Origin: an uncultured virus (IMG/VR IMGVR_UViG_3300010233_000006) | Lineage: Duplodnaviria > Heunggongvirae > Uroviricota > Caudoviricetes | IMG/VR virus record: IMGVR_UViG_3300010233_000006 | DNA length: 64,000 nucleotides | Reading direction: 5' to 3' (one strand) | In this document: piece after piece, positions 1 through 54,427 of the stretch | Layout: each line of letters starts with the position of its first letter | Position numbering within the stretch: position 1 is the stretch's first letter | Position numbers and translations under genes: made by a program | Notes under the pieces: generated by a model | The model's database searches: none | What the model saw: the letters and a program-made list of their open reading frames with translations, nothing else | Told to the model about the DNA's origin: nothing

Positions 1-94
1 CAGCCGCCTGAGAAACAGGAACCGTTCTACGCGCTGTGCTGTTGCTTAGCATTGGTGTGTAGAATCCCCCGGCTTAAGCCGTGGGGAGTATCAA
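1..94 (+). mobile_element. IS200/IS605-family right end / omegaRNA scaffold, copy 1 (cut by window edge)
   Basis: Matches 49964-50057 (3' end of tnpB plus subterminal hairpin CCCCCGGCTTAAGCCGTGGGG and terminal TCAA) except one substitution (ATTGGTGTGT vs ATTGGAGTGT). Confidence 0.9.
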
Positions 95-27741: not shown

Positions 27742-28167
27742 TTACCCCAACCTCTCCAACAATTCTTCGATCTTTTCCTGGTAGCGCTGCTCCAGTTCCT
27801 CGTTCGCCAGTTTATAACGGGCTTCCACGGCCGCGATCTCAAACTTGTGCCGGGTTTCGGCAGCGTTCAATTCCACTACATGCCGCTGAGTTATCTCGAG
27901 AATGGTCGCCTGCAGTTTCTCCACCTCCTCCTGCAAGGCGTCGACCTTCCTGGACATCTCGCCTGCTTGCCGCTCGTAGCGATCGAGCATGCTCTGAGTG
28001 TACTGGGTCGAGAGGGTGGCCAGTCCCACATCTTGTCGGCTCGCGTCCTGCTTGGCAAGACGACGGAATCGTTGGGCTGCCGCCATCCAGGTGCCCAACG
28101 CCGCAAGTATTCCAGCAATCCCAGCGATCAGTACATTAAGTGGAGTTGCCTCGTTGGCGTTGATCAC
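27742..28167 (-). CDS. N-terminal TM plus coiled-coil protein (lysis-cassette-like)
   Basis: One hydrophobic helix followed by a heptad-rich region. Confidence 0.55.
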   Translation of the reverse strand: MINANEATPLNVLIAGIAGILAALGTWMAAAQRFRRLAKQDASRQDVGLATLSTQYTQSMLDRYERQAGEMSRKVDALQEEVEKLQATILEITQRHVVELNAAETRHKFEIAAVEARYKLANEELEQRYQEKIEELLERLG

Positions 28168-28585
28168 AATGATATGTCTCTTGCGCAGGAATCAGAAGAG
28201 CACGAAAAATGGAAGTCAGGCCAAACACTGGAGCGATTACACCGATGATCGGAGGAATCGTTGGACGCACGCAGAATAGCCAGCCAACCGTTATCCAGAT
28301 TGCGACACTACTGCCGTAGACGTATGCTAAGGCATGGTGTCGTTCAGTCGCCGCACAAAAGATAATGGTCATCCCCGTCAATAGAAACCAGATTCCCCAG
28401 TAACTGATAGGAAACCAAAACTGCATATCGGCCGCGATACGAGGAAATCTATGGTGCATCCATCCAGACTGTAACAGCCAAAGGCCAAAAGCCATATGCG
28501 CTCCACCCTCCCGGAAATCAAACAGCATGTACGGATCGCCAAACTGCCGGCGGAGGTTGGCAAGCATATTAAGAATGGACGCCAT
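28136..28585 (-). CDS. membrane protein
   Basis: About 4 hydrophobic segments. Confidence 0.6.
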   Translation of the reverse strand: MASILNMLANLRRQFGDPYMLFDFREGGAHMAFGLWLLQSGWMHHRFPRIAADMQFWFPISYWGIWFLLTGMTIIFCAATERHHALAYVYGSSVAIWITVGWLFCVRPTIPPIIGVIAPVFGLTSIFRALLIPAQETYHCDQRQRGNST

Positions 28586-28831
28586 TTATGATTTACTTTC
28601 TGGAGACACGTCGGCCCCGACCGGGTATTCTGTCGGCGCTTCCGTCTTAGTGTTCGTTTGCGGCTTCACGCGCATGAGCATCGCACCTGAAATTCCGGTC
28701 AATAGGCCGGAGATCACCTGGAAGATCTGCCCATCGGTGGCGAACCAGTGCTCGGCCGCGAATAAGCACAGGGTGAAGAACACCAACAAACCTGCAAGAA
28801 GATAGATGATGGGTTCGATACGAGGCTGCAT
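28586..28831 (-). CDS. holin-like two-TM protein
   Basis: 81 aa, 2 TM helices, polar C-terminal tail. Confidence 0.5.
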   Translation of the reverse strand: MQPRIEPIIYLLAGLLVFFTLCLFAAEHWFATDGQIFQVISGLLTGISGAMLMRVKPQTNTKTEAPTEYPVGADVSPESKS

Positions 28832-29368
28832 GACGTGCCTATGCTCCTGTGCTCGCGGTCAGAACCTGCCCCGGGGCATCGTGATGGCCTGCGAGATGCG
28901 GTTACTCTGCCGCGAGAAACTCTACTCACCCTCGCCAATCGCTCCTAACGCTGAGCGGTAGTCTGTCTGCCGCGCCGGGTCGAGCGTGGCCAGCCGGGAG
29001 AGGCTGACGCGCACCGCTTCGCGCAGGATGGCAGTTTCCACGGCAATGCGGACCTCGGTCTTGATGCTCTGGACTTCGGCGCGGATGGCTGAGAGCGGGT
29101 CCATCATCGATCTATCCTGATCTCTGCACGCGTCCACCGTTCAATCTCGCGCCGCCACCATCTCCGCAGCTTGAGCTTGATATAGCCTGTCGGCTTGTCG
29201 ATATCCACGCCCTTCTTTCGGAGTCCGCGCGGCAGAATCATCGCGCCGCCTGCATGATGTTGGTGATTGAGTTGGCCATCTCGTCGGCGATGCGGAGGGC
29301 TTCCCGAGCCCGCCGAAGCTCGTGCTCCAGTCGGGCTATCTCTCTATCCTTGTCGTCGCGCTCGTGCT

Positions 29369-29620
29369 TCATTTTCTTTTCCCAAACAGACTCGCGATCC
29401 CGTTGAAGATCGCGCTGAAGGTCTTGGTGACGGCTGCCTCGATCTTGCTACCGGCTTCGAGCTCAGCTTCGAGGAGCTTTTGCCCTGCCGGCGTCGAGAG
29501 CAGATTGCAGACGGCAGTGATCGCCTGGCAGACGGTCGTGACATCCGCGCTGATGGGGTCGAGCACCGCCAGCGTGATTGCTGGCGGTGCCGGTGCCGGA
29601 GTTGTTGGTTGAGGGCCCAT
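29369..29620 (-). CDS. hypothetical protein
   Basis: ORF in operon. Confidence 0.55.
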   Translation of the reverse strand: MGPQPTTPAPAPPAITLAVLDPISADVTTVCQAITAVCNLLSTPAGQKLLEAELEAGSKIEAAVTKTFSAIFNGIASLFGKRK

Positions 29621-29626
29621 GCGCCT

Positions 29627-29971
29627 TCAGTACGTGGTGGTTTGGCCCGTCACTTTCTCGATGGCACCGGTTTGCAGCGAATCGAGAATAGCCTGGTTCA
29701 GGTCGAGGCGCGCCTGGCTGAGCGTGACCTGTGCATTCTGGGCATTGCTGACCACCGTCTGCTGGGTGGCTAGGGCTGCGAAATAGGCGTCGTTGGCGGC
29801 TTTGATCAGCGCTTGCGCCTGGGCCGGCGCGGTAACTGTAGCGTTGGCTTTCGCGGCTTCGACGGCCGCTTCCGCTTGGACTGACGCCGATTGAGCGGCA
29901 GTAGCGGCCGCCTCGGCATCGAAGAACTTCTTCTGCGCGGTGATGACCGCGCCTTGTTGTTGCTGGGTCAT
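29627..29971 (-). CDS. Ala/Gln-rich helical protein
   Basis: ORF with AGGA RBS. Confidence 0.6.
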   Translation of the reverse strand: MTQQQQGAVITAQKKFFDAEAAATAAQSASVQAEAAVEAAKANATVTAPAQAQALIKAANDAYFAALATQQTVVSNAQNAQVTLSQARLDLNQAILDSLQTGAIEKVTGQTTTY

Positions 29972-30131
29972 AAATGTCCTGCTTATCTCCTGGGACCAGT
30001 CTATCGCTAATGCCCCTCGCCCGGATCATCTCTGCGCTTCGCCAAGTACAGCGCTTCGCGTTTGGCATCGGGCCAGAGAAGACCGGCGAGAATCGCGATT
30101 ATTCCCGCGATGATCAGAATATGCCAGATGG

Positions 30132-30590
30132 TCACGGCTGTTTCGGCTTCTCTGGATCTTGGCAGTCCGCAGTCATCCGGTCAAACGCCTTGGGTGCCAC
30201 ACAGCGCTTTGCGAGATCCGTGAACATCTGCTGCATGGCCGTGGTCTTGGGACCCAGTTCGACGGCCGATTTTGTCTCGATGTCTGTGAGCTTCGTTTTC
30301 AGCGCCAGCATTTGGCTACCGAGATCCGCCAGCTCTGTCTTCGGACCCATCATCTGGCTTGCCCACTTGTTCTGGAGTTCCAGATATTCCGTGTAGGCGC
30401 GGTGGAAGGCGTCTTTTTCGGCTTGGGTGATGGAAGACGGGTTGGGTGCAGTCTCCTTGGCAGACGCGGGCGTGGCAGCTTTGGTGGCGGCGACGACGGG
30501 AGCGGGTGCGTGATCCTGGGCTGGTAGCCAAAGATCCATTGCGAGGACCACGATGGCGAAGCCGATGACGAAACGGTGTGAAGTGTTCAT
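30132..30590 (-). CDS. signal-peptide coiled-coil protein
   Basis: MNTSHRFVIGFAIVVLAMDLWLPA|Q; the start ATGA is the left flank of the mini-element. Confidence 0.65.
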   Translation of the reverse strand: MNTSHRFVIGFAIVVLAMDLWLPAQDHAPAPVVAATKAATPASAKETAPNPSSITQAEKDAFHRAYTEYLELQNKWASQMMGPKTELADLGSQMLALKTKLTDIETKSAVELGPKTTAMQQMFTDLAKRCVAPKAFDRMTADCQDPEKPKQP

Positions 30591-30773
30591 TAGTTTCAGC
30601 TTACTTCCTTTTCTTGCTTTTGTCCGCACAGGGCACGTGGAGGCAGCATCAGACCCGAGCCGGTCCAAACCGGCAAGGGCAGCCGCCTGAGAAACAGGAA
30701 CCGTTCTACGCGCTGTGCTGTTGCTTAGCATTGGAGTGTAGAATCCCCCGGCTTAAGCCGTGGGGAGTATCAA
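30591..30773 (+). mobile_element. TnpB-less IS200/IS605 mini-element or remnant carrying omegaRNA scaffold and right end (copy 2)
   Basis: 30637-30773 matches 49921-50057; removing 30591-30773 restores GGAGG-CATACT-ATG for the downstream gene. Confidence 0.8.
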
Positions 30774-30799
30774 AGTATGCCTCCAGAAGGGTTGGACTT

Positions 30800-31552
30800 T
30801 CACGATAAGATGCTCCGCAACGTCCAGAAATCCCCTGATAAGTCGGCACTCAATAGATAGGCGTAGGGCATCCAGAAATAGCCGCTCAGCCCCCATCCTG
30901 CTCCCCATGAATTCCGACACCAGAACTGTTGACGCTTCTCGTTGTAGCCGATGCACAACACCGCATGGCCACCGAGCATTGATTCGGACGCGGATGGCAT
31001 CGGAACCACACCGGTCTTCGCCACCGCATTTGACTCAAACGAATCGTAGACCGAGAATCCGAAGACGAAGGGGAAGCGCTGCGCCAGACAGCCACGCATC
31101 GAATTGAGGTCCTGTCCGACTGCCCAATAGGAAACGCCTTTGTGCGCTAGGCCGGCAGCATAGGCCTGTGGAGATGGCTTCACCGCGAAGCGGCCGGTAT
31201 CGTATGGCCACAATACTTCCGAACAAGCGCCATAATCAGCCATCGCCTTCATACAATCCCGAAGAGTGGCGCCCGAATCGGACGGGACCGTCCCCTCGAT
31301 CACCCGTTCGTTGTAGTAAATGAACAAGCGGGACGGTTCGACTTGTGGCAATTTCTGCCGGAATTGATCGAATGCAATTGCTCCGGCCCCGGCGTTGGCC
31401 GTGCAAGATCCCAATTGTTCCTGATCGTAGATCGGCGGCAGCCCGCTGCGCAGATCCACATAAGACGGAAACCTTGTGGGGGCCAAAGACTGGAAACGCC
31501 AATCACGCTGATCGGGAAGTTGACGTTTCCAGCCGTATCTCTGCATTGGCAT
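30800..31552 (-). CDS. papain-like cysteine peptidase (C1A)
   Basis: QEQLGSCTANA (Cys), GGHAV (His), RNSWG (Asn). Confidence 0.92.
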   Translation of the reverse strand: MPMQRYGWKRQLPDQRDWRFQSLAPTRFPSYVDLRSGLPPIYDQEQLGSCTANAGAGAIAFDQFRQKLPQVEPSRLFIYYNERVIEGTVPSDSGATLRDCMKAMADYGACSEVLWPYDTGRFAVKPSPQAYAAGLAHKGVSYWAVGQDLNSMRGCLAQRFPFVFGFSVYDSFESNAVAKTGVVPMPSASESMLGGHAVLCIGYNEKRQQFWCRNSWGAGWGLSGYFWMPYAYLLSADLSGDFWTLRSILS

Positions 31553-32628
31553 TATCTGACTCCATGGGAAATATAGAATACATTCGACATCCCGAGGAAG
31601 TCCATCCAGCCCCGGAACGCATCTGCATTATGCGTTTCAAGAGCCTTCAGCCCGTCCTCGGCGGCACCGGGGTCGTGTATCAGAGATCGACCGATCTGCG
31701 CCACGTCATCCGAGTCGTCGAAGTGAGCCGTCCAATGCTTCGGGGCCCAATCGATAGCGGCACTCACCACGGAGGGCACGCCCTCCGCGATCCCGTCCGC
31801 AGTCACCATATTGAAGCTTTCGGTGTACGAGCAGTTTACGAGCAGGTGCATGGAACGGACCAGATCCCGAAATTTCGGCCAGTCCGCCCAGGGAGACTGC
31901 ATCAACACGATTCCCGGAATTTGGGAAACCATCGACTTCACGGCTTCGAGCACCGTCTGGCCGCCACCCTCGGCGCGTCCGCTGTTCACCCAGATTTCGG
32001 TCGCGGCTTTCAGTTCATTGGCGATCAGCAAGGCGGCATTGGTCGCGGTCATGAGATTCTTCAGCGGCCGGAAGGCCCCGAAGCACCCAATGCGCAAAGT
32101 TCCACCATTCCACAACGCCCTCCTCGGCTTCGCCGTGCTGTCCAGGTAATACATGTTCCCCAGATATAGATTGGGGGCGGCGAAGCTTTTCTCGAGAGCT
32201 CTCGCGCCTTTCCGGGAGTTCGAAGCCGTGGCAAAGTTCAAACTACCTTGCGCCAGATCAACGTACTCCCGGATCAGTTTCACGCCATTACTATCGGCTT
32301 GGAGAAATCCGATGTTCGAGTGACAGGAAACCGCAAATTGGACGTGCCCAAATCGCCGGATGATGCTGCCTAAATCGGGAGTCGTAATCCAGGGTGCCGA
32401 TACGATGACGTCTGTCACGTCTGGCCTAATCGCCTGGACGAGTTGATCTGCCGTGGCTACCGGCGCGACGGTCGTTCGGATTCCATGCGCACGCAGCACC
32501 TTGGCGGTATTGAGCGCAGCCACCCCCAGGCCGATATGGGAGACGTTCGGTCCGGCAAAATTCTTGTAGGCGAACAAGACATGAGCGGTTTCTGGGGAGC
32601 GCTGTGAAGGGACTCGGAGATAATGCAT
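31552..32628 (-). CDS. glycosyltransferase, GT-B/GT4-like
   Basis: RPLKN; SYTESFNMVTADGIAEGVPSVVS. Confidence 0.7.
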   Translation of the reverse strand: MHYLRVPSQRSPETAHVLFAYKNFAGPNVSHIGLGVAALNTAKVLRAHGIRTTVAPVATADQLVQAIRPDVTDVIVSAPWITTPDLGSIIRRFGHVQFAVSCHSNIGFLQADSNGVKLIREYVDLAQGSLNFATASNSRKGARALEKSFAAPNLYLGNMYYLDSTAKPRRALWNGGTLRIGCFGAFRPLKNLMTATNAALLIANELKAATEIWVNSGRAEGGGQTVLEAVKSMVSQIPGIVLMQSPWADWPKFRDLVRSMHLLVNCSYTESFNMVTADGIAEGVPSVVSAAIDWAPKHWTAHFDDSDDVAQIGRSLIHDPGAAEDGLKALETHNADAFRGWMDFLGMSNVFYISHGVR

Positions 32629-32968
32629 TACGACAATAGTACTCTCAAAAGGCTGCGAATTTATGACAAACCTCGCACACGGTAGAAGAGATTTCGATAT
32701 CTCGGTGGAGACGATTCAGGACGCCATACGGACGGCAGAGACGCTACGACGACACGACATCACGAATCAGCACGACGGGAGCCAGAAGCACACGGGAGAG
32801 GATGGTTGGCCCCGTAAACGCTCGGCATCATGCCGCCATTTTCCACTTTCGACGTAGTATACGATCACTCCTCCCAAGGTTGCCGCCCAATAGTCGAAGG
32901 CCGCAGAGAACCCGCTCGGGAAGCAGGTAACGCACTTGCCGCGCTGGACGGCCCAGAGCATAAGCCCC

Positions 32969-34291
32969 TTACCCTTGCCAGGCGTAGGTGATTCTGTTTC
33001 GCTTGCTTACATCCACTGCCTGTGGATTTCCGCCCCATGGGTTGACGCCGATATTGCATACGGCACCGCTGGTATCAGCGCCGAATGTGACATCGCCGTC
33101 GAACGGTGTGAAATCAAGGTCGAATCGGCCGCCCTGCATCTTGTCGGTCAACAGTTGGTGCCGTGGCTGATCTGCGCGCCCGTACCACCCCGTACCTCCC
33201 AGTTGACAACCGGAAACTTCCAACTTTCGCGAAACGTTGAAGCCGACATGCCCCTTCGCATTTCCTATCCCGAACTGGAACACGCTGGAGAATCCCTCTA
33301 CGATGAGATCGCGAAACTTCAACGCCACCGGTCCATAGGATTCCCCGTTCCAATCCGCCGCGAGTACGCGCACGGAGACAGGCATGCCACAGATGGCGGC
33401 GCCGAAAATCCCGCCTCCGAATCCGGGACGCACCCCTTCCGGCAAGACCAGCGGGGCCCATTGGAACATGGGCATGTCGGTGAGGTCTCCAACTATCGCA
33501 GGCGGGAAATTCGCGAAGTCGTAGGCGTATAAGCCACCTTCGAACCGGACGTTGTCTCCCCCAACAATGTTGATGATGGGCGCTATCGGCATCCTGCTGG
33601 TGGAACCATTGACGGGTAGCCTCCCGGCGTATATGATGCAGTTGCGGAACACCGTATTTTCCCCTATTGCTTGGGGCACCGCCGGGTTGTTGACTATCTC
33701 GATGGCCGTGCCGATGTTCCCACAGATCGAGATCTCGCTGTTGACACACCCGTTCGAGACGCCGCGGTAGCTGATGACCGGCGGCGGAAGAGCGGCGTTA
33801 GTGAAACGCCCGGAAAGTGAGACGTTGAATCCCACTCCGCGCACGCAGGCCCGTGTCCATTGGCGGGATACGGAAAGCATTGACGGGTCGGCAACAAGCA
33901 TCGGGCCGGAATCGGAACTGTCCCGCGCCTGCAGGATCGAGCACTTGGCATCGCCGGAGCGACCGCCCATCAATCCATCACCCTGCAGAATGGTGCCGGG
34001 ATAGGAGAAATGCAGTGGACCTGTCAGCGATACGCCAGGCGGGATATAGACGACATTCGGAGCGCCCGGCTTGGCTACGGTGTCGAGAGCTCGCTGAATG
34101 GCTGCGGTATCATCCGTAGAGCCATCGCATTTGGCCCCAGCGTCCCGCACGTCGATTACGCGAGAGAATCCGATACTCGGAGACGGCACCGGCGCCGGAG
34201 GCTGCTGGCCGGCCTGCAAAGCAGCGACGGCGGCCTTGAGAAAGGCAATGTCGGAATCGACTTGGGAGGCGGCGGATGCGAGTTGGGACAT
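32969..34291 (-). CDS. pectate-lyase-3-like beta-helix protein (tailspike-like)
   Basis: IDVRDAGAKCDGSTDDTAAIQRALD...VYIPPG. Confidence 0.8.
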   Translation of the reverse strand: MSQLASAASQVDSDIAFLKAAVAALQAGQQPPAPVPSPSIGFSRVIDVRDAGAKCDGSTDDTAAIQRALDTVAKPGAPNVVYIPPGVSLTGPLHFSYPGTILQGDGLMGGRSGDAKCSILQARDSSDSGPMLVADPSMLSVSRQWTRACVRGVGFNVSLSGRFTNAALPPPVISYRGVSNGCVNSEISICGNIGTAIEIVNNPAVPQAIGENTVFRNCIIYAGRLPVNGSTSRMPIAPIINIVGGDNVRFEGGLYAYDFANFPPAIVGDLTDMPMFQWAPLVLPEGVRPGFGGGIFGAAICGMPVSVRVLAADWNGESYGPVALKFRDLIVEGFSSVFQFGIGNAKGHVGFNVSRKLEVSGCQLGGTGWYGRADQPRHQLLTDKMQGGRFDLDFTPFDGDVTFGADTSGAVCNIGVNPWGGNPQAVDVSKRNRITYAWQG

Positions 34292-34294
34292 GAT

Positions 34295-34561
34295 TTAGTG
34301 CTTGATCGGCTTACCGTCCATCAGGAGGACACCGGCTTTGGTGCGGCAGTAGATGTGCTTGTAGTCGCCCGGCTTGGCTTTCTTGATTCGCGGGTCGACA
34401 CATGGCCACGGCCATGCTTCACTTCCGAGTGTTGTGCCCGGCCCGGGGTATTCGATCCAGACTGGACCGCCGCGGCTCGTTGTAGTCGGTGGCGGCGAGG
34501 GAATCGGCTTGAATTCCTGCCCGAAGGCCGCGACTACAGACAGGAACAGGAAGATCCGCAT
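34295..34561 (-). CDS. small signal-peptide protein
   Basis: MRIFLFLSVVAAFG|Q. Confidence 0.55.
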   Translation of the reverse strand: MRIFLFLSVVAAFGQEFKPIPSPPPTTTSRGGPVWIEYPGPGTTLGSEAWPWPCVDPRIKKAKPGDYKHIYCRTKAGVLLMDGKPIKH

Positions 34562-34673
34562 GTTAATCCACATGGTGCTGCTCTTCCCAATGTGCCGCTC
34601 CCATCGCAAGGAAAAAAGCGATGGCGGCCACGATCACCGGCAATGCGAGGATGAAGAGAAGAACGCTCATGGC

Positions 34674-35255
34674 TTACTCTATCACTCTTTCAAACTGTAT
34701 TCGTAGGGAATATGTGCATTCCATATGCACCGAGTGTCCCAGCGTGTTTTCGAAGCTGGCCAGTTTCAGGTACAGCGTATCGGCGTCCAGAAACGTCCGC
34801 TCTTCCCGCAGATCGACATCGAACGGTACCCGGATCGGCTGGTCTGAGATCCCCGCTTGCAGATAGATCGGCACTCCTTCGGCGCACACCATTGGGCAGA
34901 CCGGTGAGCCTTCCTTGATGGTGGTCGAGAACCCCAGTAGCACGCCGGCATAGGCACCCCGCTTTACTGGTGCCTCGCCTTCCATCACCTTGGGCCAGGC
35001 AATCAGATCTCCCCGGATCCGGAGAATCCGCACCCGGTAGCCGGCCGGAACCTTGAACACCATCGGCAGAACAGCGGAATCGGCATGGCCCCAGATACAA
35101 GGCCCTGAGCCGCAGGTCTGCCCCTGCATCCGGGAATCCACCGGTCCATAGCTGTCCACCGGCCAGTTGCCTGTTTGGGTTGGTACCGCTATAACTGACG
35201 GCTGCTGGGCACAGGATGGGAGCGCGAGGGCCAATAGGAGGAGCAGAGATCTCAT
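34674..35255 (-). CDS. exported protein or lipoprotein
   Basis: MRSLLLLLALALPSCA|QQ. Confidence 0.6.
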   Translation of the reverse strand: MRSLLLLLALALPSCAQQPSVIAVPTQTGNWPVDSYGPVDSRMQGQTCGSGPCIWGHADSAVLPMVFKVPAGYRVRILRIRGDLIAWPKVMEGEAPVKRGAYAGVLLGFSTTIKEGSPVCPMVCAEGVPIYLQAGISDQPIRVPFDVDLREERTFLDADTLYLKLASFENTLGHSVHMECTYSLRIQFERVIE

Positions 35256-35391
35256 GTCACCAGCATACCGTTGCGCAAGAATCCATGCCATTGAGGAACC
35301 TCGCTTTCAATGCAGAGGATCGAATGACGACACGGCGTCACGAATCAGTACGACGGAAACCGAAGCGCCACAACAGACGATGGTTGACCCT

Positions 35392-35664
35392 TCAGTTCGA
35401 GTTGGCGGAATCGTCAACTGGAGGTGCCGGGGTTGCCACGTATTCTGGTCCCAAGTCCTGAACATAACCTGCCATGTTGAGATCTGTGCTTGGGTTATAT
35501 TCCCGTGCTGAGATCACATAATTGGAGGCTAGGCTTGTTGCTGGGTCTACCTGGACGTGTCCGGTGGGATCGGTATCCGACTGGACGACGATGGTGTTTC
35601 CGTTAGTGGGGCCGGTGCCTGCTGCATTCAGTGGGCCGGCGAGAGTGCAAAACCAAAGTTTCAT
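35392..35664 (-). CDS. hypothetical protein downstream of fibre
   Basis: AAGGA RBS; 90-aa ORF. Confidence 0.55.
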   Translation of the reverse strand: MKLWFCTLAGPLNAAGTGPTNGNTIVVQSDTDPTGHVQVDPATSLASNYVISAREYNPSTDLNMAGYVQDLGPEYVATPAPPVDDSANSN

Positions 35665-35679
35665 GATGATGAATTCCTT

Positions 35680-38600
35680 TCAACAGTGTGTCACGATTCC
35701 AGCAGAAGTAGCAAACGAGGCAGTCGGTGGTCCAGAACACGTTTGCCCGAGAACTCCTCCCGGAGCAACGATTATAGTGGACACATTCAAGCCATTAAAG
35801 ATGCCACTACCGGCATACACATGAGACCATGGTAGTGAGGAAGTCCCTAAATCATAAGTACTGCCAGCAGTTGGAACTAGACCTCCAGTAACATTCCCAA
35901 AAATAGATGAGGCTATGGATATGCCAGAGTTGAATGTTGCCGTGGTTTGGTAAGTATTGAAACCCGTCCATGTATTATTCCCGCTCAGGCTGACGCCTCC
36001 ACAAGCCGGGCAAGAAGTCACGTTCAGCGTCCCGATAGTGGCAGTGACGAAGTGCGCATCATTCCACCGGCATGGGCCCACTCCTCCGTTGATATTGGGA
36101 GCGCATGGCCCTGTCGTTCCGAGCGATCCCGTGTTATCGCTCACAGGATTAATGCCGGTTGCGGTCACGACGGCGCGTTTGACTCTTCCATTCGAGCCCG
36201 CCGCTACTGTCTCAAAATAGATATCCGCTCCATTGTTGGAGAAGCCCCAATTTTCATTCGCGAGCATCGAGATGGCCGCACTCCCCGAGGTCGTGAACCC
36301 GAGCCCGGAAACATAGCCGCGCCCCGACAGGCTGAACAGGACGCCGCCGCTTATGGTGGAGGAGGGAGATGCGTAGGTTCCGTTAGCGTTGCGACCGAGA
36401 AAGCTCGGAATCCCGTTGGCGTACCCGTCCGCCACATAGAACGCAGAACCTTGGGTAGCAATTTGTGCGATGGTTCCAGGGGGGACATCAATCGGAACCA
36501 ATCCCAATTCAGCCGCGAAACCTCTATAGGTACCGTATCGCAAAGAGCGGGAACCTACATCAAATACCGCATCCTGCGTTGGTAGCAGATTAGCAGTATG
36601 CACACAGTTGGCACAGCCGGTGATAGCTGGCGGAGTGCCTTGGGTGGGGTTGTTGGATGCTTCTACTCGGAACCTTGCTGTGACATGACCTCCGTCCCGT
36701 ATTTCGAAGGCAGATGTCAATGTAGAGCCGTTGAATCCGTCGATGATTAGACCCGGTTCGGTTCCGAGTGCTTGAGAAATATGGACAGATGCGTTGTTCG
36801 TTACCGGTCCCGGATTGAGAACGATGTTTCCGTTGGTGGAATTCGATCCAGTGATATTGATCGGTGCTCCGGAGAATGCTGCTGTAATGTTCGGTGTGCT
36901 GTTCAGATTGATTCCGCCTAGGAAGGTGGCCGCCTGGTTGTGATTGGTAGGTCCGGTGAGGTCAATTGTTGTGGGCGTTGAAGAAGCGTTGTAGGATTTG
37001 ATGAAGCTGGTATGGGAGCCAGGATCGTGATAAACCTGAAGGCCGACTGCTGTACTTGGCGGGTTGACCGTGGTTTGGCCGGTGACAAAGAATCCGTTGG
37101 CCACGCTGCCGCCCGATCCGCATGGGCTGCCCGAACACGACAGCGTAGCAAACGTGGCATTGCGTGATGCGTCGATTACTGTGGTTCCTCCCATTTTGTA
37201 AGCAGAGGACGGTCCCGTGGCGTTGAATTGTCCGAAGGCGGAAACGTTCCCGTTGCCGTCCACCTGGAAGTTGGTGTTGACCGTTTGGAAGGCGATGGAA
37301 GATCCCGTGATCGGCGATTGGATGGAACCGACCGCGTTGATGATAACGACGCCATTCATCTTCAGGAAGGATCCGGAAGAGGTTAGATTCAGATCGCCAA
37401 GGGCACTTACATTCCCGTTGCCATCCACCTGGAACGGAGTGCCAAGTCCGTTAGCGATCTGGAATCCTATGGCCGCGCCTGATGCCTGAGACTGGATGGT
37501 GCCGCTCGAATTCAACAGCGTGAACCATCCTTCATGCCAAGGAAAACCGACAGTGCCGAAATCATTCGAGCCAGTTACCTGGATCGGCCCTGTCATCGTG
37601 CCGCCGACGAGGGGAAGCGCATGCAGATCAGCCGTCTTCCAGGCCGACGCCACGTCATCCCACAGCAAATATATCGTTCCAGATTGGTGGGCCACAGCCC
37701 CAAATCCAGCGGCCGGTGTATTCAGTGTTCCCGTGGTCTGATTCTTCAGATATACGGCCTGCTCGGCCGTAACTCCGAGCTTTACATGGATGCCACCCAG
37801 AAGAGAATCGATGGAGTTGTAATCGGTGGCTGTCGTTGCCAGCCCACCCATCGCCAGAAAATACGAATTCAGATTCAGCCCAATCAGCGGATTATTGCCT
37901 ATCGGGGCACCGCAGGCACTCGGTGGCATCAACGGAGAAGTTGAAACCCAAAGGACCGCGTCATCTGGAGAAAATGAATCGCCCGTGAGCGGCAAGGGCT
38001 GCGTCACTACATTACCAAAAATATCAATGCATTGGATGAGGCTGTCATATGGATTATAGGTTACCGGGGTGAGATGAACATATCCTCCCTTTGTGCCCGC
38101 GAGATTTTGCGATATGGTGCTGGCTCGAAATAGAGTTCCGTCCGAGCCGGAATTGGCAGCATTGATCGACCCACCGGCAGTGAAGCTGACCGCAGAAGCG
38201 CTTACGTTGATCGCCGATAACGCATTCGCATTGTCATAGCTTAGCCAGTTGGTGGAGTGGTCTGATGGGTTGTACCAGGCCTGCCAGCCTACAGTGGTAA
38301 CTGGGGGGCCTACTGCCGTCTTGCCGGTCACCTGGAAGCCGTTCACGACGGCGGCGGCTCCGCATGGGCTGCCCGAACACGACAGCGTAGCAAACGTGGC
38401 ATTGCGTGATGCGTCGATTACTGTGGTTCCTCCCATTTTGTAAGCAGAGGACGGTCCCGTGGCGTTGAATTGTCCGAAGGCGGAAACGTTCCCGTTGCCG
38501 TCCACCTGGAAGTTGGTGTTGACCGTTTGGAAGGCGATGGAAGATCCCGTGATCGGCGATTGGATGGAACCGACCGCGTTGATGATAACGACGCCATTCA

Positions 38601-39882
38601 TCTTCAGGAAGGATCCGGAAGAGGTTAGATTCAGATCGCCAAGGGCACTTACATTCCCGTTGCCATCCACCTGGAACGGAGTGCCAAGTCCGTTAGCGAT
38701 CTGGAATCCTATGGCCGCGCCTGATGCCTGAGACTGGATGGTGCCGCTCGAATTCAACAGCGTGAACCATCCTTCATGCCAAGGAAAACCGACAGTGCCG
38801 AAATCATTCGAGCCAGTTACCTGGATCGGCCCTGTCATCGTGCCGCCGACGAGGGGAAGCGCATGCAGATCAGCCGTCTTCCAGGCCGACGCCACGTCAT
38901 CCCACAGCAAATATATCGTTCCAGATTGGTGGGCCACAGCCCCAAATCCAGCGGCCGGTGTATTCAGTGTTCCCGTGGTCTGATTCTTCAGATATACGGC
39001 CTGCTCGGCCGTAACTCCGAGCTTTACATGGATGCCACCCAGAAGAGAATCGATGGAGTTGTAATCGGTGGCTGTCGTTGCCAGCCCACCCATCGCCAGA
39101 AAATACGAATTCAGATTCAGCCCAATCAGCGGATTATTGCCTATCGGGGCACCGCAGGCACTCGGTGGCATCAACGGAGAAGTTGAAACCCAAAGGACCG
39201 CGTCATCTGGAGAAAATGAATCGCCCGTGAGCGGCAAGGGCTGCGTCACTACATTACCAAAAATATCAATGCATTGGATGAGGCTGTCATATGGATTATA
39301 GGTTACCGGGGTGAGATGAACATATCCTCCCTTTGTGCCCGCGAGATTTTGCGATATGGTGCTGGCTCGAAATAGAGTTCCGTCCGAGCCGGAATTGGCA
39401 GCATTGATCGACCCACCGGCAGTGAAGCTGACCGCAGAAGCGCTTACGTTGATCGCCGATAACGCATTCGCATTGTCATAGCTTAGCCAGTTGGTGGAGT
39501 GGTCTGATGGGTTGTACCAGGCCTGCCAGCCTACAGTGGTAACTGGGGGGCCCACTGCGGTCTTGCCGGTAACCTGAAATCCGTTGACGACCGCTGCGGC
39601 TCCGCAGGAGGAGATGGTCCAGGTTCCCGTGCCGTCATCCTGGACGCAGCCGACTGCGGTAGCACCCGGTAGCCGGAAGACCTGGTTTGCGCTGATCGAA
39701 TCGGGAGGACTCAGGCTGATATGGTGGGGAGAAACCTGTTTGTCGCGGAACTGCACTTCTCCAACTGCTCCAGGACCACTGCCGGTTCCAGTCGTAGGAA
39801 TTACTTCGAAAATATTGGACCGGGTGGATTGGGCAAAGGACGCCGGCGCTAGGAGAAGCACGCAGATAAGCTTGAGATTCAT
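35680..39882 (-). CDS. tail-fibre-like protein with signal peptide and internal 414-aa duplication
   Basis: Position after tail tip; repeated PxxDxxxDLGxxxxxW-like fibre motifs; MNLKLICVLLLAPASFA|Q. Confidence 0.8.
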   Translation of the reverse strand: MNLKLICVLLLAPASFAQSTRSNIFEVIPTTGTGSGPGAVGEVQFRDKQVSPHHISLSPPDSISANQVFRLPGATAVGCVQDDGTGTWTISSCGAAAVVNGFQVTGKTAVGPPVTTVGWQAWYNPSDHSTNWLSYDNANALSAINVSASAVSFTAGGSINAANSGSDGTLFRASTISQNLAGTKGGYVHLTPVTYNPYDSLIQCIDIFGNVVTQPLPLTGDSFSPDDAVLWVSTSPLMPPSACGAPIGNNPLIGLNLNSYFLAMGGLATTATDYNSIDSLLGGIHVKLGVTAEQAVYLKNQTTGTLNTPAAGFGAVAHQSGTIYLLWDDVASAWKTADLHALPLVGGTMTGPIQVTGSNDFGTVGFPWHEGWFTLLNSSGTIQSQASGAAIGFQIANGLGTPFQVDGNGNVSALGDLNLTSSGSFLKMNGVVIINAVGSIQSPITGSSIAFQTVNTNFQVDGNGNVSAFGQFNATGPSSAYKMGGTTVIDASRNATFATLSCSGSPCGAAAVVNGFQVTGKTAVGPPVTTVGWQAWYNPSDHSTNWLSYDNANALSAINVSASAVSFTAGGSINAANSGSDGTLFRASTISQNLAGTKGGYVHLTPVTYNPYDSLIQCIDIFGNVVTQPLPLTGDSFSPDDAVLWVSTSPLMPPSACGAPIGNNPLIGLNLNSYFLAMGGLATTATDYNSIDSLLGGIHVKLGVTAEQAVYLKNQTTGTLNTPAAGFGAVAHQSGTIYLLWDDVASAWKTADLHALPLVGGTMTGPIQVTGSNDFGTVGFPWHEGWFTLLNSSGTIQSQASGAAIGFQIANGLGTPFQVDGNGNVSALGDLNLTSSGSFLKMNGVVIINAVGSIQSPITGSSIAFQTVNTNFQVDGNGNVSAFGQFNATGPSSAYKMGGTTVIDASRNATFATLSCSGSPCGSGGSVANGFFVTGQTTVNPPSTAVGLQVYHDPGSHTSFIKSYNASSTPTTIDLTGPTNHNQAATFLGGINLNSTPNITAAFSGAPINITGSNSTNGNIVLNPGPVTNNASVHISQALGTEPGLIIDGFNGSTLTSAFEIRDGGHVTARFRVEASNNPTQGTPPAITGCANCVHTANLLPTQDAVFDVGSRSLRYGTYRGFAAELGLVPIDVPPGTIAQIATQGSAFYVADGYANGIPSFLGRNANGTYASPSSTISGGVLFSLSGRGYVSGLGFTTSGSAAISMLANENWGFSNNGADIYFETVAAGSNGRVKRAVVTATGINPVSDNTGSLGTTGPCAPNINGGVGPCRWNDAHFVTATIGTLNVTSCPACGGVSLSGNNTWTGFNTYQTTATFNSGISIASSIFGNVTGGLVPTAGSTYDLGTSSLPWSHVYAGSGIFNGLNVSTIIVAPGGVLGQTCSGPPTASFATSAGIVTHC
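37117..39600. repeat. 1242-bp in-frame tandem duplication
   Basis: 37117-38358 vs 38359-39600; identical alternate-frame ORFs offset by 1242. Confidence 0.95.
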
Positions 39883-40346
39883 GCTGCTAACATCCCGGTT
39901 GGAACTGTTTCCACATCGAGCGTCCAGTATGTTCCTTCGAATGTGAGAGGATACATCGTTCGTGTATTGGCTGTTCCATCGATCTGCTGGAGGGCGATAT
40001 TCGAAGCAAATCCTCCGCTCCCACTTGCGAAGGTAGGTCGCGCCCGTTGCCCGCTTCCGTCCTGATAGACAATCAGCCAGATTTTCAGACCGGCCGCAAT
40101 TGTTCCGCCAGTCCAGATCGGCTTATCCACGAAGACCTCTACCGAATTCAGATTCAAGCGAAAGATGAACCGTTGTCCTGGAGGGGACATGCCATCGCTA
40201 ATATCGATGGTGGCTGTCGATGGTGGGGGAGAACCACCGGTCGGCACGAGGACGTGATAACCAAAATTGCCAGTTGATCCACCCGAAGATGGAGAAGTGC
40301 CACCTGAGGTCCGCAGCTTGATGAGATTTCGGGCGAGGGCTGGCAC
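39879..40346 (-). CDS. minor tail protein
   Basis: Between tail tip and fibre; LIVYQDGSGQR segment typical of phage fibre-associated domains. Confidence 0.6.
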   Translation of the reverse strand: MPALARNLIKLRTSGGTSPSSGGSTGNFGYHVLVPTGGSPPPSTATIDISDGMSPPGQRFIFRLNLNSVEVFVDKPIWTGGTIAAGLKIWLIVYQDGSGQRARPTFASGSGGFASNIALQQIDGTANTRTMYPLTFEGTYWTLDVETVPTGMLAA

Positions 40347-40358
40347 GTCTGAGGCTTC

Positions 40359-43300
40359 TCAATTTTTGATCTTGATCTCAACAGCGTCCCCTTGATTTAA
40401 GAGGACCTCCGCAACCGATCCATCCTGGAACGCCTCTCCCGATGGGGGAACCGCGGTCGCTGAATTGGCATCGGTCGACACCTTCTGAACGATCAGCCGC
40501 ACATTGGGTGCTGGAGGCGTGCTGGTCAGCCCCAAGCACTGCACGGTAATCGCCCCGCCCGTCGTGTCGCATTCAATTGTTCCATCCGTGAGGAGTTGCG
40601 TGGTGTCCGCGAAGACTTCTCGCGTGCCCCCGGCGCCCCAGACATAGCCTTCCCGGAAAGCCACGGTATTTTGAGGACCTGTGAAGCCGGCCGCGTCTGC
40701 CGAGTACAATTCCACGCGCACTACTTTGGCCGGATAGTTCTGAATGGGAACAACACCGAGCAGGTTCTGCCAGTTTGTGTAGTCCGCGAGTTGCACCGCG
40801 CCGCCCGGTAGGGACACTTGGGGAATCGCCTCCAAGAGAATGATGACGCTGGTCGAGTTCGGAATAATATCCCACCCCGGAGAGACAGTGATTTTGGTTC
40901 CGGTATTGTCCACGACCGTTTGGACTGGCTGAAATGCGCCATGCCCACCAATCACCAGGCACAGATTTCCGCCGTTTCCATGGACCGTCAGGCCCGTACC
41001 GGGATTGTTGTAGAAATTGTCGAAGAGCGCGTCTGTGAATGAGGTAGCGTCGAATGCCGTAGGCGCGGTTCGCAACGTGAACAGGTCGCCAGCCACGCAT
41101 CCCGCCGCGAAGGGATCTGGTGTTACGGTGAAATCTCCCGCATTGGTGTTAGCCGTTACGGTGAAGTCCTGGATGGGAATATTGGTATCGCTGTTTTGAA
41201 TGGCATTCGCCAGTTTCGATAGGATCCGCCCGACGAATTGGTTTGCCGTGGGGCTGCCGCCGAAGACGATGTGACCGGTCGTTACCGAGGCGGCCTCCTG
41301 CGCAAAGATCCCGCTCACTAGTTCGCGCGATACCCGGATTACCGGATGGTCGAATTCATCGTCGGGAGGGCCGACTCCTATGCCCGTCACAGTCGTCAGG
41401 TCTTCGGCAATCGAACCCGTAGTCGAGGTCCCCGCATCTGCTGTGTTTGCCTCAAAATGGAATCCACGCGTATCGTCGGGTGAGGCAACGAAGATTGCGC
41501 CACCAAAACTGCCAGGCGCCCAGGCGACGGTGATGGTCAGCTTGTTGCCAGAGCCGGTCGTGGTGACGGAGACAAAATTCGATAGTCGGCTAATGCCTGC
41601 GGTCAGCAGTCCCGTTGTGGCGTCCACACTGCCGGCTCCATCATAGGCGCAGACTGCCACGACGAATGTGCCCGCTCCAATCGATCCCCCTGAAGCAGAG
41701 ACGACCGCCGTAATGGCCGGAGCGCTGTTGAGTGCGGAAAAAATGTTGATCGGCGGTTTCCCGTAAAGGACCGCTTGCGGCAGTGGTGTCCCATCTTCGG
41801 CGAGGGTATAATTCAGCCTCAGACCGAAGGTTTTGGCCGTAAAGAGCGGATCTCCGGATAGTGGCGGTTCGTACCCCGCATTGATCGGGAGTGAGGCGCG
41901 TATGGTGATCGGGCCAGGAGCGGATCCGCCGGCGGGCGTACCGGTGATCCAGGCAGACGGAATTCCCGCTGCATTTACCGACCGGATACGGACGTTGTAC
42001 AGATCCCCCAAAACCAGGTTGCCAATAGTTGCCGTCGTGGCACTCGGATCCATCTTAGCGAGCGAGAACCAGAGACCTTCCGGGCTGGCCACCACCTGAT
42101 ATTCGATCTCGATGTGTCCTCCAAGGAGAACGAAGGCGTCTGCCGGTGCCGTCCAGGTGACGATGATAGACCCGGAGCCGTTGGTCAAGATGACGTTGGT
42201 CGGGGGTGCCGGGGTAGCTGTTGAGGGGGTGATCGCCTGCTGATAGCCTGCCGGAGAAAGCTCTTCGCCGATGGACCAGGCATATACGGAAGAATCCGTC
42301 TCCTGCACATCCAGTTCTACCCCCAGTAACGGTGCCGTTCCCGATTGCGTTTCCAGTTTCAGGCGTGCTGCCAGGACTTCCAAGTTTTTGGCCGTCCATG
42401 CGAAATAGGAGAGATCGAGAGCGATCACATCCATCGGCGTGAACTGATACGCGGCCATATTGAGCAGGAACGTACCGGTTCCCTGCTGGCGCCGCCGCAT
42501 GAGTTCGATCTTGGCCAGACGTTGAGCCGAGGGACACGAGATTGTGAAGGGAAATTGGACATCAAGCCAACGCCGATCCCCACCATCGGCGATCAGAAAC
42601 TGGTCGCTGCCAAAGCCATGCGTGCTGTCCTGGGCATATCGCGGGAAATCTGAGGCCTGCCAATTGTTCACAGGGCTGACGTAGGTTCCTTTGACGCCGT
42701 TGAAGAGTTCAGAAACCGAAACTGCCGGCTTCCATCGAAAGGCGCCCGCCGCCATGGAATAGATCGATCCGCCCGTGATCGATACCGGTGTGGATCCGTA
42801 CCAGGACGCCGGCCAAATCACAAACTGCCCTTCCGTATAGGTAAGCCGACCAGCACATGAGGTCAGCATGTTCCTCAGTACCTCTCCCCGACGCATTGCC
42901 AGCGTGAAACCACCATTACAGGCGTAGCGAGGCTCGGTCCCACCGCTTGCCAGGCTCACCGCTTCATCACATACATTCGCAGCGGCAATCAGTGGAGAGA
43001 GGGGAATTTCCGTTCCGTAGGATGCTTTGAACCCGAACGTAGTATTGTTCAGGTAATCCGCGATACAGAGAGCGGCATTTTCTGTGTATCCGATCGTGGG
43101 GGGGCTGGTGCGTGGATCCGAGATGTCCTTCTTGCCTGAAATGTGGAACGAGATCTGCGGCAGGCCGTTGGCGAAGTACGCATCATTATAGTGCAGCCTT
43201 AGCCAGATGGCCGTCATACCGACGAGCGAGCATTGCGCAGTCCATGGATTTGTAGCGTTCACAATCCGTGGCCCCAATAGGTTGGTGTCGTCTGGAGTTC

Positions 43301-44069: not shown

Positions 44070-44072
44070 GGA

Positions 44073-44507
44073 TCAGACTCGCCATGCCCTTTCGACATTT
44101 ACAATCGGCACCTTTGAGAGTCCAACTCCGATCGGAATCATGGCGTGGATTCCGTCGAGTGCCACGATTCCCAGCAATGAATGATTGCGTGGTTGACGGA
44201 TCAGCACTACATCCCCCCTTTGCGCAAATTGGGGAGCGACTTCGGGCATGTGGGCCTTTTCGAATAATTTTGCGGCAAGACTGACGAACGACATCCTACC
44301 GCAGGCCTTCCTAACAATTACCATTGCTTGTTTGTGATTCGCGTAATGACCGCGAAAAGCTTCGGCGAGATCAACGCCGGTCATGGCCTCGATGGCTCCC
44401 GCGGCAAACAGGCAGCAATCGAAGTGACCATATTGAAAGTTCTGCTTTTCGTTCTCGATTAGGTACCGTTCCAGAAAATAGGGCCAATCGTCGTCGCGGC
44501 GAAGCAC
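44073..44507 (-). CDS. NlpC/P60-like tail-associated protein (DUF6950-type)
   Basis: FQYGHFDCCLFAAGAIEAMTG; AQRGDVV; AWRV. Confidence 0.8.
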   Translation of the reverse strand: MLRRDDDWPYFLERYLIENEKQNFQYGHFDCCLFAAGAIEAMTGVDLAEAFRGHYANHKQAMVIVRKACGRMSFVSLAAKLFEKAHMPEVAPQFAQRGDVVLIRQPRNHSLLGIVALDGIHAMIPIGVGLSKVPIVNVERAWRV

Positions 44508-44516
44508 AGAACACCC

Positions 44517-45104: not shown

Positions 45105-45108
45105 TTAT

Positions 45109-45483: not shown

Positions 45484-45492
45484 AGAGATCGT

Positions 45493-48414: not shown

Positions 48415-48419
48415 TGGGC

Positions 48420-48779
48420 TTATGTAGATTCCTGATTAAGTGCGGACAGTTGCGCTCTGTACATTCTCATGACCGTCGTGGGGTATTTGATTCCTAGAAG
48501 AATCCCAATTTGCGCGAATGTGGTGCCCGATCCCCGCAACGCAATCACCCGTTCCCTAAGTGCCAGTTTTTCTGCCGTTAGTTTCGCCATCCTGATTTTG
48601 GCTATTACTGCTGCTGGTCGCGAGGTGCCCCTTAATTGCTCTGCCTGATTATGATGGGCTTCGCTGAGTCGTGTGCGCAGTTCGTATGAAGCTCGGCGCC
48701 GTGTCATTGCTGTCCTTTGGTTCTCAGGCATCGGCTTCCCTTTATTATGCGGTGGCCTTCCCTTCTTCCGCGCACTCAT
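48420..48779 (-). CDS. NUMOD3-type DNA-binding protein with C-terminal HTH
   Basis: PHNKGKPMPENQR, RTRLSEAH, IAKIRMAK; GTTFAQIGILLGI; no nuclease domain seen. Confidence 0.6.
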   Translation of the reverse strand: MSARKKGRPPHNKGKPMPENQRTAMTRRRASYELRTRLSEAHHNQAEQLRGTSRPAAVIAKIRMAKLTAEKLALRERVIALRGSGTTFAQIGILLGIKYPTTVMRMYRAQLSALNQEST

Positions 48780-50057
48780 TTTGCGTTTGGACCCAGTATT
48801 TACTGAGGTTTTAACGTATACTGGTATCGGATGGTGCGCGGCTTTCAATACCGCTTTTACCCTTCGCCAGAGCAGAAAACAGCACTGGCGAGAACCTTCG
48901 GTTGCGCTCGCTATGTCTACAACTGGGCGCTCAACCTGCGAAGTACAGCGTGGCGGGAGCGACAGGAGCGGACGAGCTACGGACAGACGTCGGCAGCCTT
49001 GACGGAGTTGAAGCGGCAACCCGAAGTCGGGTGGCTCAACGAGGTTAGTTGCGTGCCGGTGCAGCAGTCCCTTCGCCACCTGCAAACGGCGTTCGTCAAC
49101 TTCTGGCAGAACGGCGCCGCCTATCTCAACTTCAAGAAACGCGACAACCGCCAGTCCGCAGAGTACACGCGCTCCGGGTTTCAGTGGGATCGCGGACAGC
49201 TTACCCTGGCCAAGATCGGCAAGCTCAAGATCCGCTGGTCGCGCCGCTTCTCCGGTACGCCGACCACCGTAACGGTGAGTCGCACGCCTGCTGGCCGCTA
49301 CCACGTTTCGTTTCGGGTGGGCGAGCCGCTTCAGGTAATGCCGGAAACTACCGGACAGCTTGGTATCGATCTTGGCTTGACCGCGTTCGCCGCATTCTCG
49401 GATGGCAACAAGCATCAGTCCCCGCGTCCGTTGCGGCGCAAGATGGCGCAACTGAAGCGCGCGCAGAAGGCGCTGTCCAGAAAGAGGAAAGGCTCCGCCA
49501 ACCGGAGGAAGGCCCGGCAGCGCGTGGCCAAAGTGCACCAGAAGATTTCGGATATTCGCCGCGACGATTTGCACCAACTGACGTCCCGTCTCGTTCGTGA
49601 AAACCAAACGATCGCGATAGAGGACTTGAACGTGCGCGGCATGATGGCGAATCACACACTGGCCGGGGCGATCGGCGATTCCGGCTGGAGCGAATTCGCC
49701 CGGCAGTTGCAGTACAAATGCGAGTGGCATGGTCGCGTTTTGATCCGCATCGACAGGTTCTATCCGTCGAGCAAGACATGCTCGGCGTGCGGATTCAAGA
49801 ACGCGTCCATGCCGCTCGATGTTCGGGAGTGGCGATGTCCTTGGTGTGGCGTGGTCCATGATCGGGATGTGAACGCCGCAAAGAACATCCTGGCCGTCGG
49901 ATTGGCGGACAGTAACGCCTGTGGAGGCAGCATCAGACCCGAGCCGGTCCAAACCGGCAAGGGCAGCCGCCTGAGAAACAGGAACCGTTCTACGCGCTGT
50001 GCTGTTGCTTAGCATTGGAGTGTAGAATCCCCCGGCTTAAGCCGTGGGGAGTATCAA
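48780..50057 (+). mobile_element. IS200/IS605-family tnpB-only (IS1341-like) element
   Basis: Left flank TCAT; CCAGTAT...ATACTGG hairpin; tnpB; right-end hairpin plus TCAA; no tnpA. Confidence 0.85.
48831..50012 (+). CDS. tnpB: RNA-guided endonuclease TnpB, catalytic residues intact
   Basis: FGCARYVYN; RuvC GIDLG, IEDL, DRDVNAA; zinc finger CSACG/CPWCG. Confidence 0.96.
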   Translation: MVRGFQYRFYPSPEQKTALARTFGCARYVYNWALNLRSTAWRERQERTSYGQTSAALTELKRQPEVGWLNEVSCVPVQQSLRHLQTAFVNFWQNGAAYLNFKKRDNRQSAEYTRSGFQWDRGQLTLAKIGKLKIRWSRRFSGTPTTVTVSRTPAGRYHVSFRVGEPLQVMPETTGQLGIDLGLTAFAAFSDGNKHQSPRPLRRKMAQLKRAQKALSRKRKGSANRRKARQRVAKVHQKISDIRRDDLHQLTSRLVRENQTIAIEDLNVRGMMANHTLAGAIGDSGWSEFARQLQYKCEWHGRVLIRIDRFYPSSKTCSACGFKNASMPLDVREWRCPWCGVVHDRDVNAAKNILAVGLADSNACGGSIRPEPVQTGKGSRLRNRNRSTRCAVA

Positions 50058-50563
50058 CCCGGCAAAACGCCTTCACGCAGCGTTGCTTCTAAAGAAGCTG
50101 CAAACGCGGCGATTGCTTCGTCTCCATTGATATCTGCACAGGGCCTGAGGAACGGATATGCCGGAACATCTTTCACGTGTGTGCCCTTGCGCTTCCGTCC
50201 TCGATTGTCAATGTAATGTCCGCCCGGAACCACCATGCGATGCCCGCGCTCGACCCAGTTTGCGACGTGCCCCTGAAAGCCGCCATAACCAACTTCTGCC
50301 GTACCGCCGCGAAAATTGGCATCCAGTGTAACTTCCGAAATCAGAGCGCGCCGCAGATCGCCGGGATGCCGCTGGCCCTTCAGGGGTGCCGTATAGATAT
50401 CCGCTTGTCGCACGGGCGTGCGTGTCTGAAGATCTACATAAAAAACACCGATCCCGGCGCCCAATGCTTTCACATATCCCCGCGCAACAACGCTCTTCGG
50501 CGCTTCCGCGAGCATTCGCTGGACTTCCTCAATGCCCGTCACAGTTATCAGTTCGCCAGCCAT
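50054..50563 (-). CDS. HK97 gp10-like tail completion protein
   Basis: TPV...GDLRRAL, WVERGH, PAYPFLRP. Confidence 0.85.
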   Translation of the reverse strand: MAGELITVTGIEEVQRMLAEAPKSVVARGYVKALGAGIGVFYVDLQTRTPVRQADIYTAPLKGQRHPGDLRRALISEVTLDANFRGGTAEVGYGGFQGHVANWVERGHRMVVPGGHYIDNRGRKRKGTHVKDVPAYPFLRPCADINGDEAIAAFAASLEATLREGVLPG

Positions 50564-53824: not shown

Positions 53825-53826
53825 GT

Positions 53827-54419: not shown

Positions 54420-54427
54420 TTTAATTC

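Follow-up and report, generated by a model that had tools for sequence, protein, structure and literature searches.

The window, by which we mean the whole stretch of 64,000 nucleotides analysed here, comes from a siphovirus-like phage and spans its replication and structural region, with a GC content of 56.9%. Nearly all of its genes lie on the minus strand, and the products encoded there include head completion, major tail, tape measure, central tail fibre, and depolymerase-like proteins. No near match to positions 28000-48000 was found in the phages collection. Among the minus-strand genes lie three copies, all on the plus strand and thus antisense to the phage genes, of the right end of an insertion sequence (Table 1). 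One is linked to an intact tnpB, one is cut by the start of the window, and one, hereafter called the orphan, stands alone between a Peptidase_C1-like gene and a 152-aa gene to which no Pfam or PHROG family was assigned.

Other repeats are present in the window. A direct repeat of 300 nt (98% identity, spacing 1242 nt; 37102-37401 and 38344-38643) sits within a minus-strand gene of 1400 aa (35680-39882) and points to a domain duplicated within a tail or fibre protein. There is also a perfect tandem duplication of 104 nt (7679-7782/7783-7886) and a tandem pair of 57 nt with 86% identity (59191-59304). Several glycosyltransferase-like and methyltransferase genes are found within the structural module (53150-58493), and an additional GT4-like gene (31552-32628) adjoins the peptidase gene.

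Table 1 Features of the window that bear on the orphan right end. Strand is given as + or -; a dot marks a feature without strand.
Feature	Position	Strand	Remarks
Right-end copy 1, cut	1..94	+	One difference (position 56)
ASCH-domain gene, 269 aa	91..900	-	TGA stop is the TCA within right-end copy 1
152-aa gene	30132..30590	-	Signal-peptide-like N-terminus; orphan lies upstream of its start on the minus strand
TTCAT	30586..30590	+	Its CAT serves as start codon of gene 30132-30590 on the minus strand
46-nt unique spacer	30591..30636	.	Between TTCAT and the truncated scaffold; minus-strand leader of gene 30132-30590
Orphan, 5′-truncated right end/omegaRNA scaffold	30637..30773	+	137 of ~164 nt; exact repeat and covariance model R1
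Orphan flank in guide position	30774..30789	+	Unique in the window
Peptidase_C1-like gene	30800..31552	-	Stop lies 26 nt off the orphan's right end
119-aa ORF, HTH-like C-terminus	48420..48779	-	Divergent from tnpB; takes the place of the relatives' left end
tnpB, 393 aa, intact	48831..50012	+	RuvC triad D180/E264/D346
Predicted complete omegaRNA scaffold, tnpB-linked copy	49894..50057	+	~164 nt; covariation in 17 sequences
Tail/neck-like gene, 169 aa	50054..50563	-	TGA stop is the TCA within the tnpB-linked right end
Guide position, tnpB-linked omegaRNA	50058..50073	+	3′ end of the minus-strand gene 50054-50563

The orphan is identical over its full 137 nt to 49921-50057, that is, to the 3′ end of tnpB and the 45 nt past it, while the cut copy has a single mismatch over its 94 nt. 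On the left, the homology of the orphan ends sharply at 30636/30637, and the bases before the junction differ between the copies. On the right, the flanks are unlike in all three copies, and each is unique in the window at 0 mismatches; elsewhere in the window the guide-position flanks have only 3-mismatch matches, which is chance level. An IS200/IS605 right end is recognised by an imperfect subterminal hairpin, a defined terminus, and flanks beyond it that are unrelated between copies, and the copies here display these. An earlier note on this DNA had described the orphan as the last 137 nt of the element, preceded by 46 nt unrelated to it, and had listed different 3′ sequences for the three scaffolds, and this description was confirmed. 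Its count of one TnpB for three guides can stand only for what the window shows, since copy 1 runs past the window start and may have a tnpB of its own. The best local score of the 46-nt spacer against 48415-49925 or the remaining window was 17-18, compared with a shuffle mean of 18.1. The spacer has no hairpin either (DNA fold of -2.9 kcal/mol, with 155 of 200 shuffles as good). No Rfam family was detected within the window at gathering thresholds, and exact right-end strings had no match in viral, genome, or metagenome contigs.

Soil metagenomes provided an independent view of the right end. Of the words sampled from the window, 4-7% occurred in three soil metagenome DNA runs of a single study, and no RNA run was listed among the matches. 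Contigs of these runs were compared with positions 48300-50300, of which 48300-48835 had zero cover, a gap that is uninformative as to the left end. Two contigs of 151 nt (X1 record 4, X3 record 9), 98-99% identical to the window with two differences each, are contiguous over 49877-50027 and 49855-50005 and cross 49921 in the full-length arrangement. Two others (X2 record 5, X3 record 11) leave the window sequence at 50057/50058 for unlike flanks, which fixes the right terminus at ...ATCAA. Judged from these contig sequences, the element is mobile elsewhere. A soil variant, 50019 A>T, occurs in two runs (X1, X2). The sole difference of copy 1 from the other two copies, T for A at window position 56, is the same variant; this leaves the orphan and the tnpB-linked copy with a private allele in common, and as one another's nearest relatives. 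X2 record 5 is a 209-nt contig that starts at 49918-49920, within 3 nt of the 5′ boundary of the orphan, and continues through the right end into its unlike flank. The near coincidence may reflect a branch of the assembly graph at that point, or it may be accidental.

The product of tnpB has HTH_OrfB_IS605, OrfB_IS605, and Cas12f1-like_TNB domains and aligns end to end with ISDra2 TnpB (8bf8/8exa/8h1j) at an E-value of 2e-81. Its D180, E264, and D346 align on ISDra2 D191, E278, and D361 (positions counted manually from the alignment), in line with the D-E-D triad claimed in the earlier note; D361 we take to be the catalytic residue of the ISDra2 triad at that place. The D191A and E278A variants of ISDra2 TnpB are described as dead (PMC8612924). 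The tnpB-linked copy hence carries the protein features of an IS1341-type element, namely HTH, OrfB_IS605, zinc-ribbon/TNB, and D-E-D. The closest public TnpB proteins are metagenomic (390-393 aa, 87% and 84% identical), and in the phages collection the coding part of tnpB matches mycobacteriophage and Thermobifida phage transposase genes at only 60-80%. No Y1 transposase (tnpA) was detected among 68 ORFs of the window compared with Pfam and 47 compared with PHROGs, a set that covers the small ORFs partly; the earlier note had likewise seen no tnpA.

The left end of the tnpB-linked copy was sought by comparison with relatives, in which a left-end hairpin lies 80-130 nt upstream of tnpB and, in L001 and L004, folds as the expected imperfect hairpin. 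A pattern search that recovered this hairpin in L001, L004, L006, and L010 yielded only the three right-end hairpins in the window. Homology to L001 upstream of tnpB reaches back only to ~48782. An 8-nt match to L001, TCAGGCAT (48724-48731), was considered as a relic of the left end and judged to be within chance. In place of the left end is the 119-aa ORF, whose stop lies 5 nt from the start of the tape-measure gene and whose GC3 of 0.51 is atypical, in a region (48415-48830) of 51% GC. A search for relatives of 65-209 aa found none. The same region gave a weak NUMOD3-like match with an E-value of 0.006, below the cut-off. As the left-end hairpin is absent and this ORF stands in its place, the tnpB-linked copy looks immobile, and its nuclease and predicted omegaRNA look intact.

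We then defined the omegaRNA scaffold of this family. TnpB relatives with their DNA were gathered from genomes (23 loci) and viral contigs (11 loci), and 16 of them were aligned with the full copy of the window, from 45 nt upstream of the orphan boundary. These 16 were chosen by eye as loci in which the conserved GGAG motif and the terminal TCAA could both be placed; truncated or too diverged loci were omitted. RNAalifold predicted a 5-bp 5′ hairpin (49894-49898/49904-49908) that is paired in all 17 sequences, with changes on both sides at four of the five pairs. In L002, L024, L025, L027, and L012 this hairpin lies past the tnpB stop, so that its conservation is at the level of RNA and not of protein. 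A script found the loop triplet to be complementary to scaffold positions -5 to -3 in 17/17 sequences: the window has GAT (49900-49902) with ATC (50053-50055), while the remaining sequences have GAC or GGC with GTC, a compensatory change. A second stem of 4 bp joins the four bases directly 5′ of the invariant GGAG block to the four bases after the central stem. It was seen in 15 of the 17 sequences, as CCTG:CAGG in 13 (in the window, 49918-49921 with 49979-49982) and as CGCG:CGCG in two (L001, L026); in L027 and L012 the pattern did not resolve the partner. The scaffold of the window also contains the right-end hairpin (50030-50050) and an insert hairpin of ~40 nt that some relatives do not have.

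This architecture closely resembles that of ISDra2, for which a scaffold of 116 nt with a pseudoknot between -105 to -103 and -5 to -3, nested stems, and a terminal hairpin is described (PMC10097598). In both, the RNA overlaps the 3′ end of tnpB, the loop of the 5′ hairpin pairs with -5 to -3, nested stems precede a terminal hairpin, and the flank after the right end is positioned to form the guide. The element of the window differs from ISDra2 in the extra insert hairpin and probably in the adjacent motif (TTCAT, deduced from relatives, as opposed to TTGAT). In the window, moreover, no tnpA was found, the tnpB-linked copy has no left-end hairpin, and the orphan is a 5′-truncated copy.

Seen against the family, the orphan is incomplete. 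The scaffold begins 27 nt upstream of its boundary, and the orphan, whose homology begins at the last G of CCTG, lacks the 5′ hairpin, the pseudoknot partner of -5 to -3, and three of the four nucleotides of the 5′ strand of stem 2. The 46-nt spacer on its left offers no replacement for these parts. It keeps the guide-proximal features, namely stem 3 and two hairpins, the variable insert and the terminal one of the right end, and its plus strand folds strongly (-57 kcal/mol, z -3.2). R1, a covariance model of the 17-sequence alignment, scored the full copy at 115.1 bits, the orphan at 75.9, with the first ~40 model positions unmatched, and the cut copy 1 at 27.7; with filters off, it found no further scaffold copies in the window. 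The possibility that the start of the orphan is the exact 5′ end of the omegaRNA was ruled out by extending the alignment upstream. The earlier note had treated the orphan as a stand-alone omegaRNA; that its 137 nt form a complete one is not supported.

Studies of ISDra2 indicate what such a loss may entail. Its 116-nt scaffold is presented as necessary and sufficient, with truncations of the triplex or pseudoknot inactivating it (10.1101/2025.02.11.637750), and in Streptomyces RNAs 5′-truncated to 114, 109, 105, and 100 nt are reported to give no detectable activity (PMC12415229). An internal deletion of -116 to -86 in a 231-nt ISDra2 RNA is reported in the latter study to keep editing activity, so the region is not indispensable in every context, for example when other 5′ sequence is attached. 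Because of the missing 5′ hairpin, pseudoknot partner, and most of one stem-2 strand, the prediction for an RNA from the orphan is that it loads TnpB poorly, if at all, and guides cleavage weakly or not at all. The function of the orphan is probably impaired; we do not claim that it is certainly dead.

Two further omegaRNA-like matches were seen outside the window. In a Chloroflexia genome, 2.4 kb downstream of tnpB, a second match (L005:6601-6710, plus strand, 24 bits) has the 5′ hairpin and a much shorter central part, and probably marks where another, related element ends. The second, a diverged solo element (L037:4760-4896, plus strand, 30.7 bits with model R1), lies in a viral record of 38 kb with a completeness rating of 96%; it ends in ATCAA and fills the gap between the stop of a Peptidase_C1 homologue (4744) and the next ORF (4914). 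A search of this record for TnpB relatives returned none, which carries no weight either way.

The junctions of the three copies with phage DNA appear to follow a common pattern. Among relatives, the sequence 18-21 nt before the left-end hairpin is TTCAT in L001, L003, L004, L005, and L006, TTTAT in L009, and TTCAC in L010, and L004 and L006, two copies in one genome, are identical exactly from TTCAT on. From these two observations we infer that TTCAT is the motif adjacent to insertion. Its reading on the phage coding strand is ATGAA. Two of the three copies provide, through the TCA at positions -4 to -2 of the right end, the TGA stop of the minus-strand neighbour (91-900 and 50054-50563), and a TTCAT in place of the right end would give the same stop, overlapping an ATG. 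At the third, the orphan flank (30774-30789) has on its minus strand the ribosome-binding motif GGAGG, 6 nt away from the junction, and the 152-aa gene begins with ATGAA 46 nt beyond it. The spacer now provides the minus-strand leader of this gene, with AAGGAAG 13 nt ahead of the ATG. All three junctions look like insertions into ATGA-type gene junctions. The element thus seems to target ATGA start/stop overlaps in antisense orientation and to restore the stop codon by means of its own end. A relative with an empty site was not found by searching relatives of the peptidase, 152-aa, and 169-aa genes and the orphan flank. Within this search, the 152-aa gene had no homologue beside 18 peptidase relatives and no relatives in metagenome or viral contigs, and the 169-aa gene had no relatives in viral contigs.

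We consider it likely that the orphan is a solo, 5′-truncated right end of an IS200/IS605-family, tnpB-only (IS1341-type) element, left by deletion, and that it is a neutral remnant. The element would have entered the phage at least three times, on the plus strand, at sites reading ATGAA on the phage coding strand (TTCAT). A later deletion at 30.6 kb would then have taken everything from the left end through tnpB to nucleotide 27 of the scaffold, so that stem 3 and two hairpins, those of the insert and of the right end, are left ahead of the flank. In one possible history, a single deletion ran from within the element leftward into phage DNA, possibly with the loss of a small gene, and the ATGAA start of the 152-aa gene is coincidental; in another, the insertion took place exactly at the present TTCAT, and a deletion within the element, filled by 46 nt, came afterwards. 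That the tnpB-linked copy is also without its left-end hairpin supports such a course of decay. The complete identity of the orphan to the tnpB-linked copy indicates that it is young, so its conservation is uninformative either way. Other observations count against a remnant: 137 of 164 nt are kept, including the guide-adjacent part; the TTCAT 46 nt to the left and the well-placed GGAGG fit a precise insertion and not a ragged deletion; and the start of X2 record 5 could mean that the same boundary recurs. The earlier note had offered a neutral deletion remnant as its alternative, and with the 5′ elements of the scaffold missing, this has become the most likely reading.

The earlier note preferred a working stand-alone omegaRNA, in which the phage TnpB loads the orphan in trans and thereby gains a further guide, its second or third, for cutting the element-free alleles that co-infecting relatives carry. 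We regard this as unlikely. What stands of the proposal is a tnpB-less right end that keeps its guide-proximal stems and a unique 3′ flank, in the same phage as an apparently active TnpB with D-E-D. Supply of the omegaRNA in trans is an established possibility, as it is reported to work for TnpB (10.1101/2023.11.20.567912), and Meers et al. discuss gene-less elements with omegaRNAs that would depend on TnpB from other copies, the palindrome-associated transposable elements (PATEs; 10.1101/2023.03.14.532601). Trans-acting omegaRNAs in gene-less elements having been described there, the concept is not new. The activity of the -116 to -86 deletion noted above also speaks in its favour. What fails is the complete scaffold: the parts that covariation supports and that the orphan lacks are the 5′ hairpin, the partner in the pseudoknot, and the strand of stem 2, and the truncated ISDra2 RNAs reported as inactive were shorter than 116 nt. 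In addition, a simple scan of the plus strand over 29800-30636 for the sigma-70 consensus, which may not be that of the host, found no promoter-like site, and the 20-nt flank of the orphan has neither a match among viral contigs nor a second site in the window.

A related proposal, which we hold to be quite unlikely, is that the whole of 30591-30773 is a 183-nt non-autonomous, PATE-like mini-element inserted 3′ of TTCAT. The motif lies directly to the left of 30591, and without these 183 nt the GGAGG would sit 6 nt before the ATG of the 152-aa gene, better than the present 13 nt. Like a PATE, the orphan is an omegaRNA-bearing right end without a nuclease gene that would need TnpB from another copy. 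However, PATEs, as they are described, keep both hairpins and the full scaffold, and they recur as short units at several sites; here the scaffold is truncated, the 46-nt left part has no hairpin, whereas the left ends of relatives fold, and this part is repeated nowhere. Moreover, five of the 42 genes of the window start with ATGAA, which gives a chance of ~12% of finding TTCAT at a start codon.

It is very unlikely that the orphan has been exapted as a structured element, with its reverse complement acting on mRNA stability or translation in the late transcript of the phage between minus-strand genes; it does sit within a minus-strand operon and folds strongly on the plus strand, but no terminator-like site was found, and structure alone is expected from its origin. 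An assembly artefact, in which a repeat-induced misjoin made the truncated copy, is extremely improbable: the window does start inside the same repeat, as with contigs that break at repeats, but a misjoin via the repeat does not dispense with reads that contain the 30636/30637 junction, and neither gene order nor strand is interrupted at the locus.

The state of the locus may be compared with TldRs, nuclease-dead TnpB relatives with fixed guides, some of which are described in prophages (10.1101/2023.11.30.569447). The phage context and a copy no longer transposing are shared with these. In contrast to TldRs, the RuvC triad is intact in the TnpB of the window, and there is no sign of guides that match promoters. 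For the tnpB-linked copy, the classical TnpB role is plausible in mixed infections: it would cut the element-free allele, into which the element would then be copied back, as has been described for TnpB (PMC8612924; 10.1101/2023.03.14.532601). This cutting belongs to the tnpB-linked copy and is not a property of the orphan.

A wider reading would be that the phage has fixed an immobile, to all appearances catalytically intact TnpB, for which the extra right ends, including the 137-nt scaffold, serve as added guides loaded in trans. We think this improbable. If it were true, element-free alleles of co-infecting relatives would be cut by the phage at two or three loci and converted or excluded, and the system would be a multi-guide stage intermediate between transposon nucleases and CRISPR-like arrays. 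If the orphan does guide, it would exemplify in nature a single viral TnpB with several dispersed guides and would bear on the origins of multi-guide systems and on phage-phage competition. The evidence favours an ordinary decay product of insertion-sequence turnover. For other phages, the case suggests that right-end fragments of omegaRNA size need to be checked against the covariation-defined 5′ boundary of their family before they are labelled as guides. Two features may merit a separate look: the apparent landing of the element on ATGA overlaps with restoration of the stop codon, and the presence of an intact TnpB without a left end in a phage.
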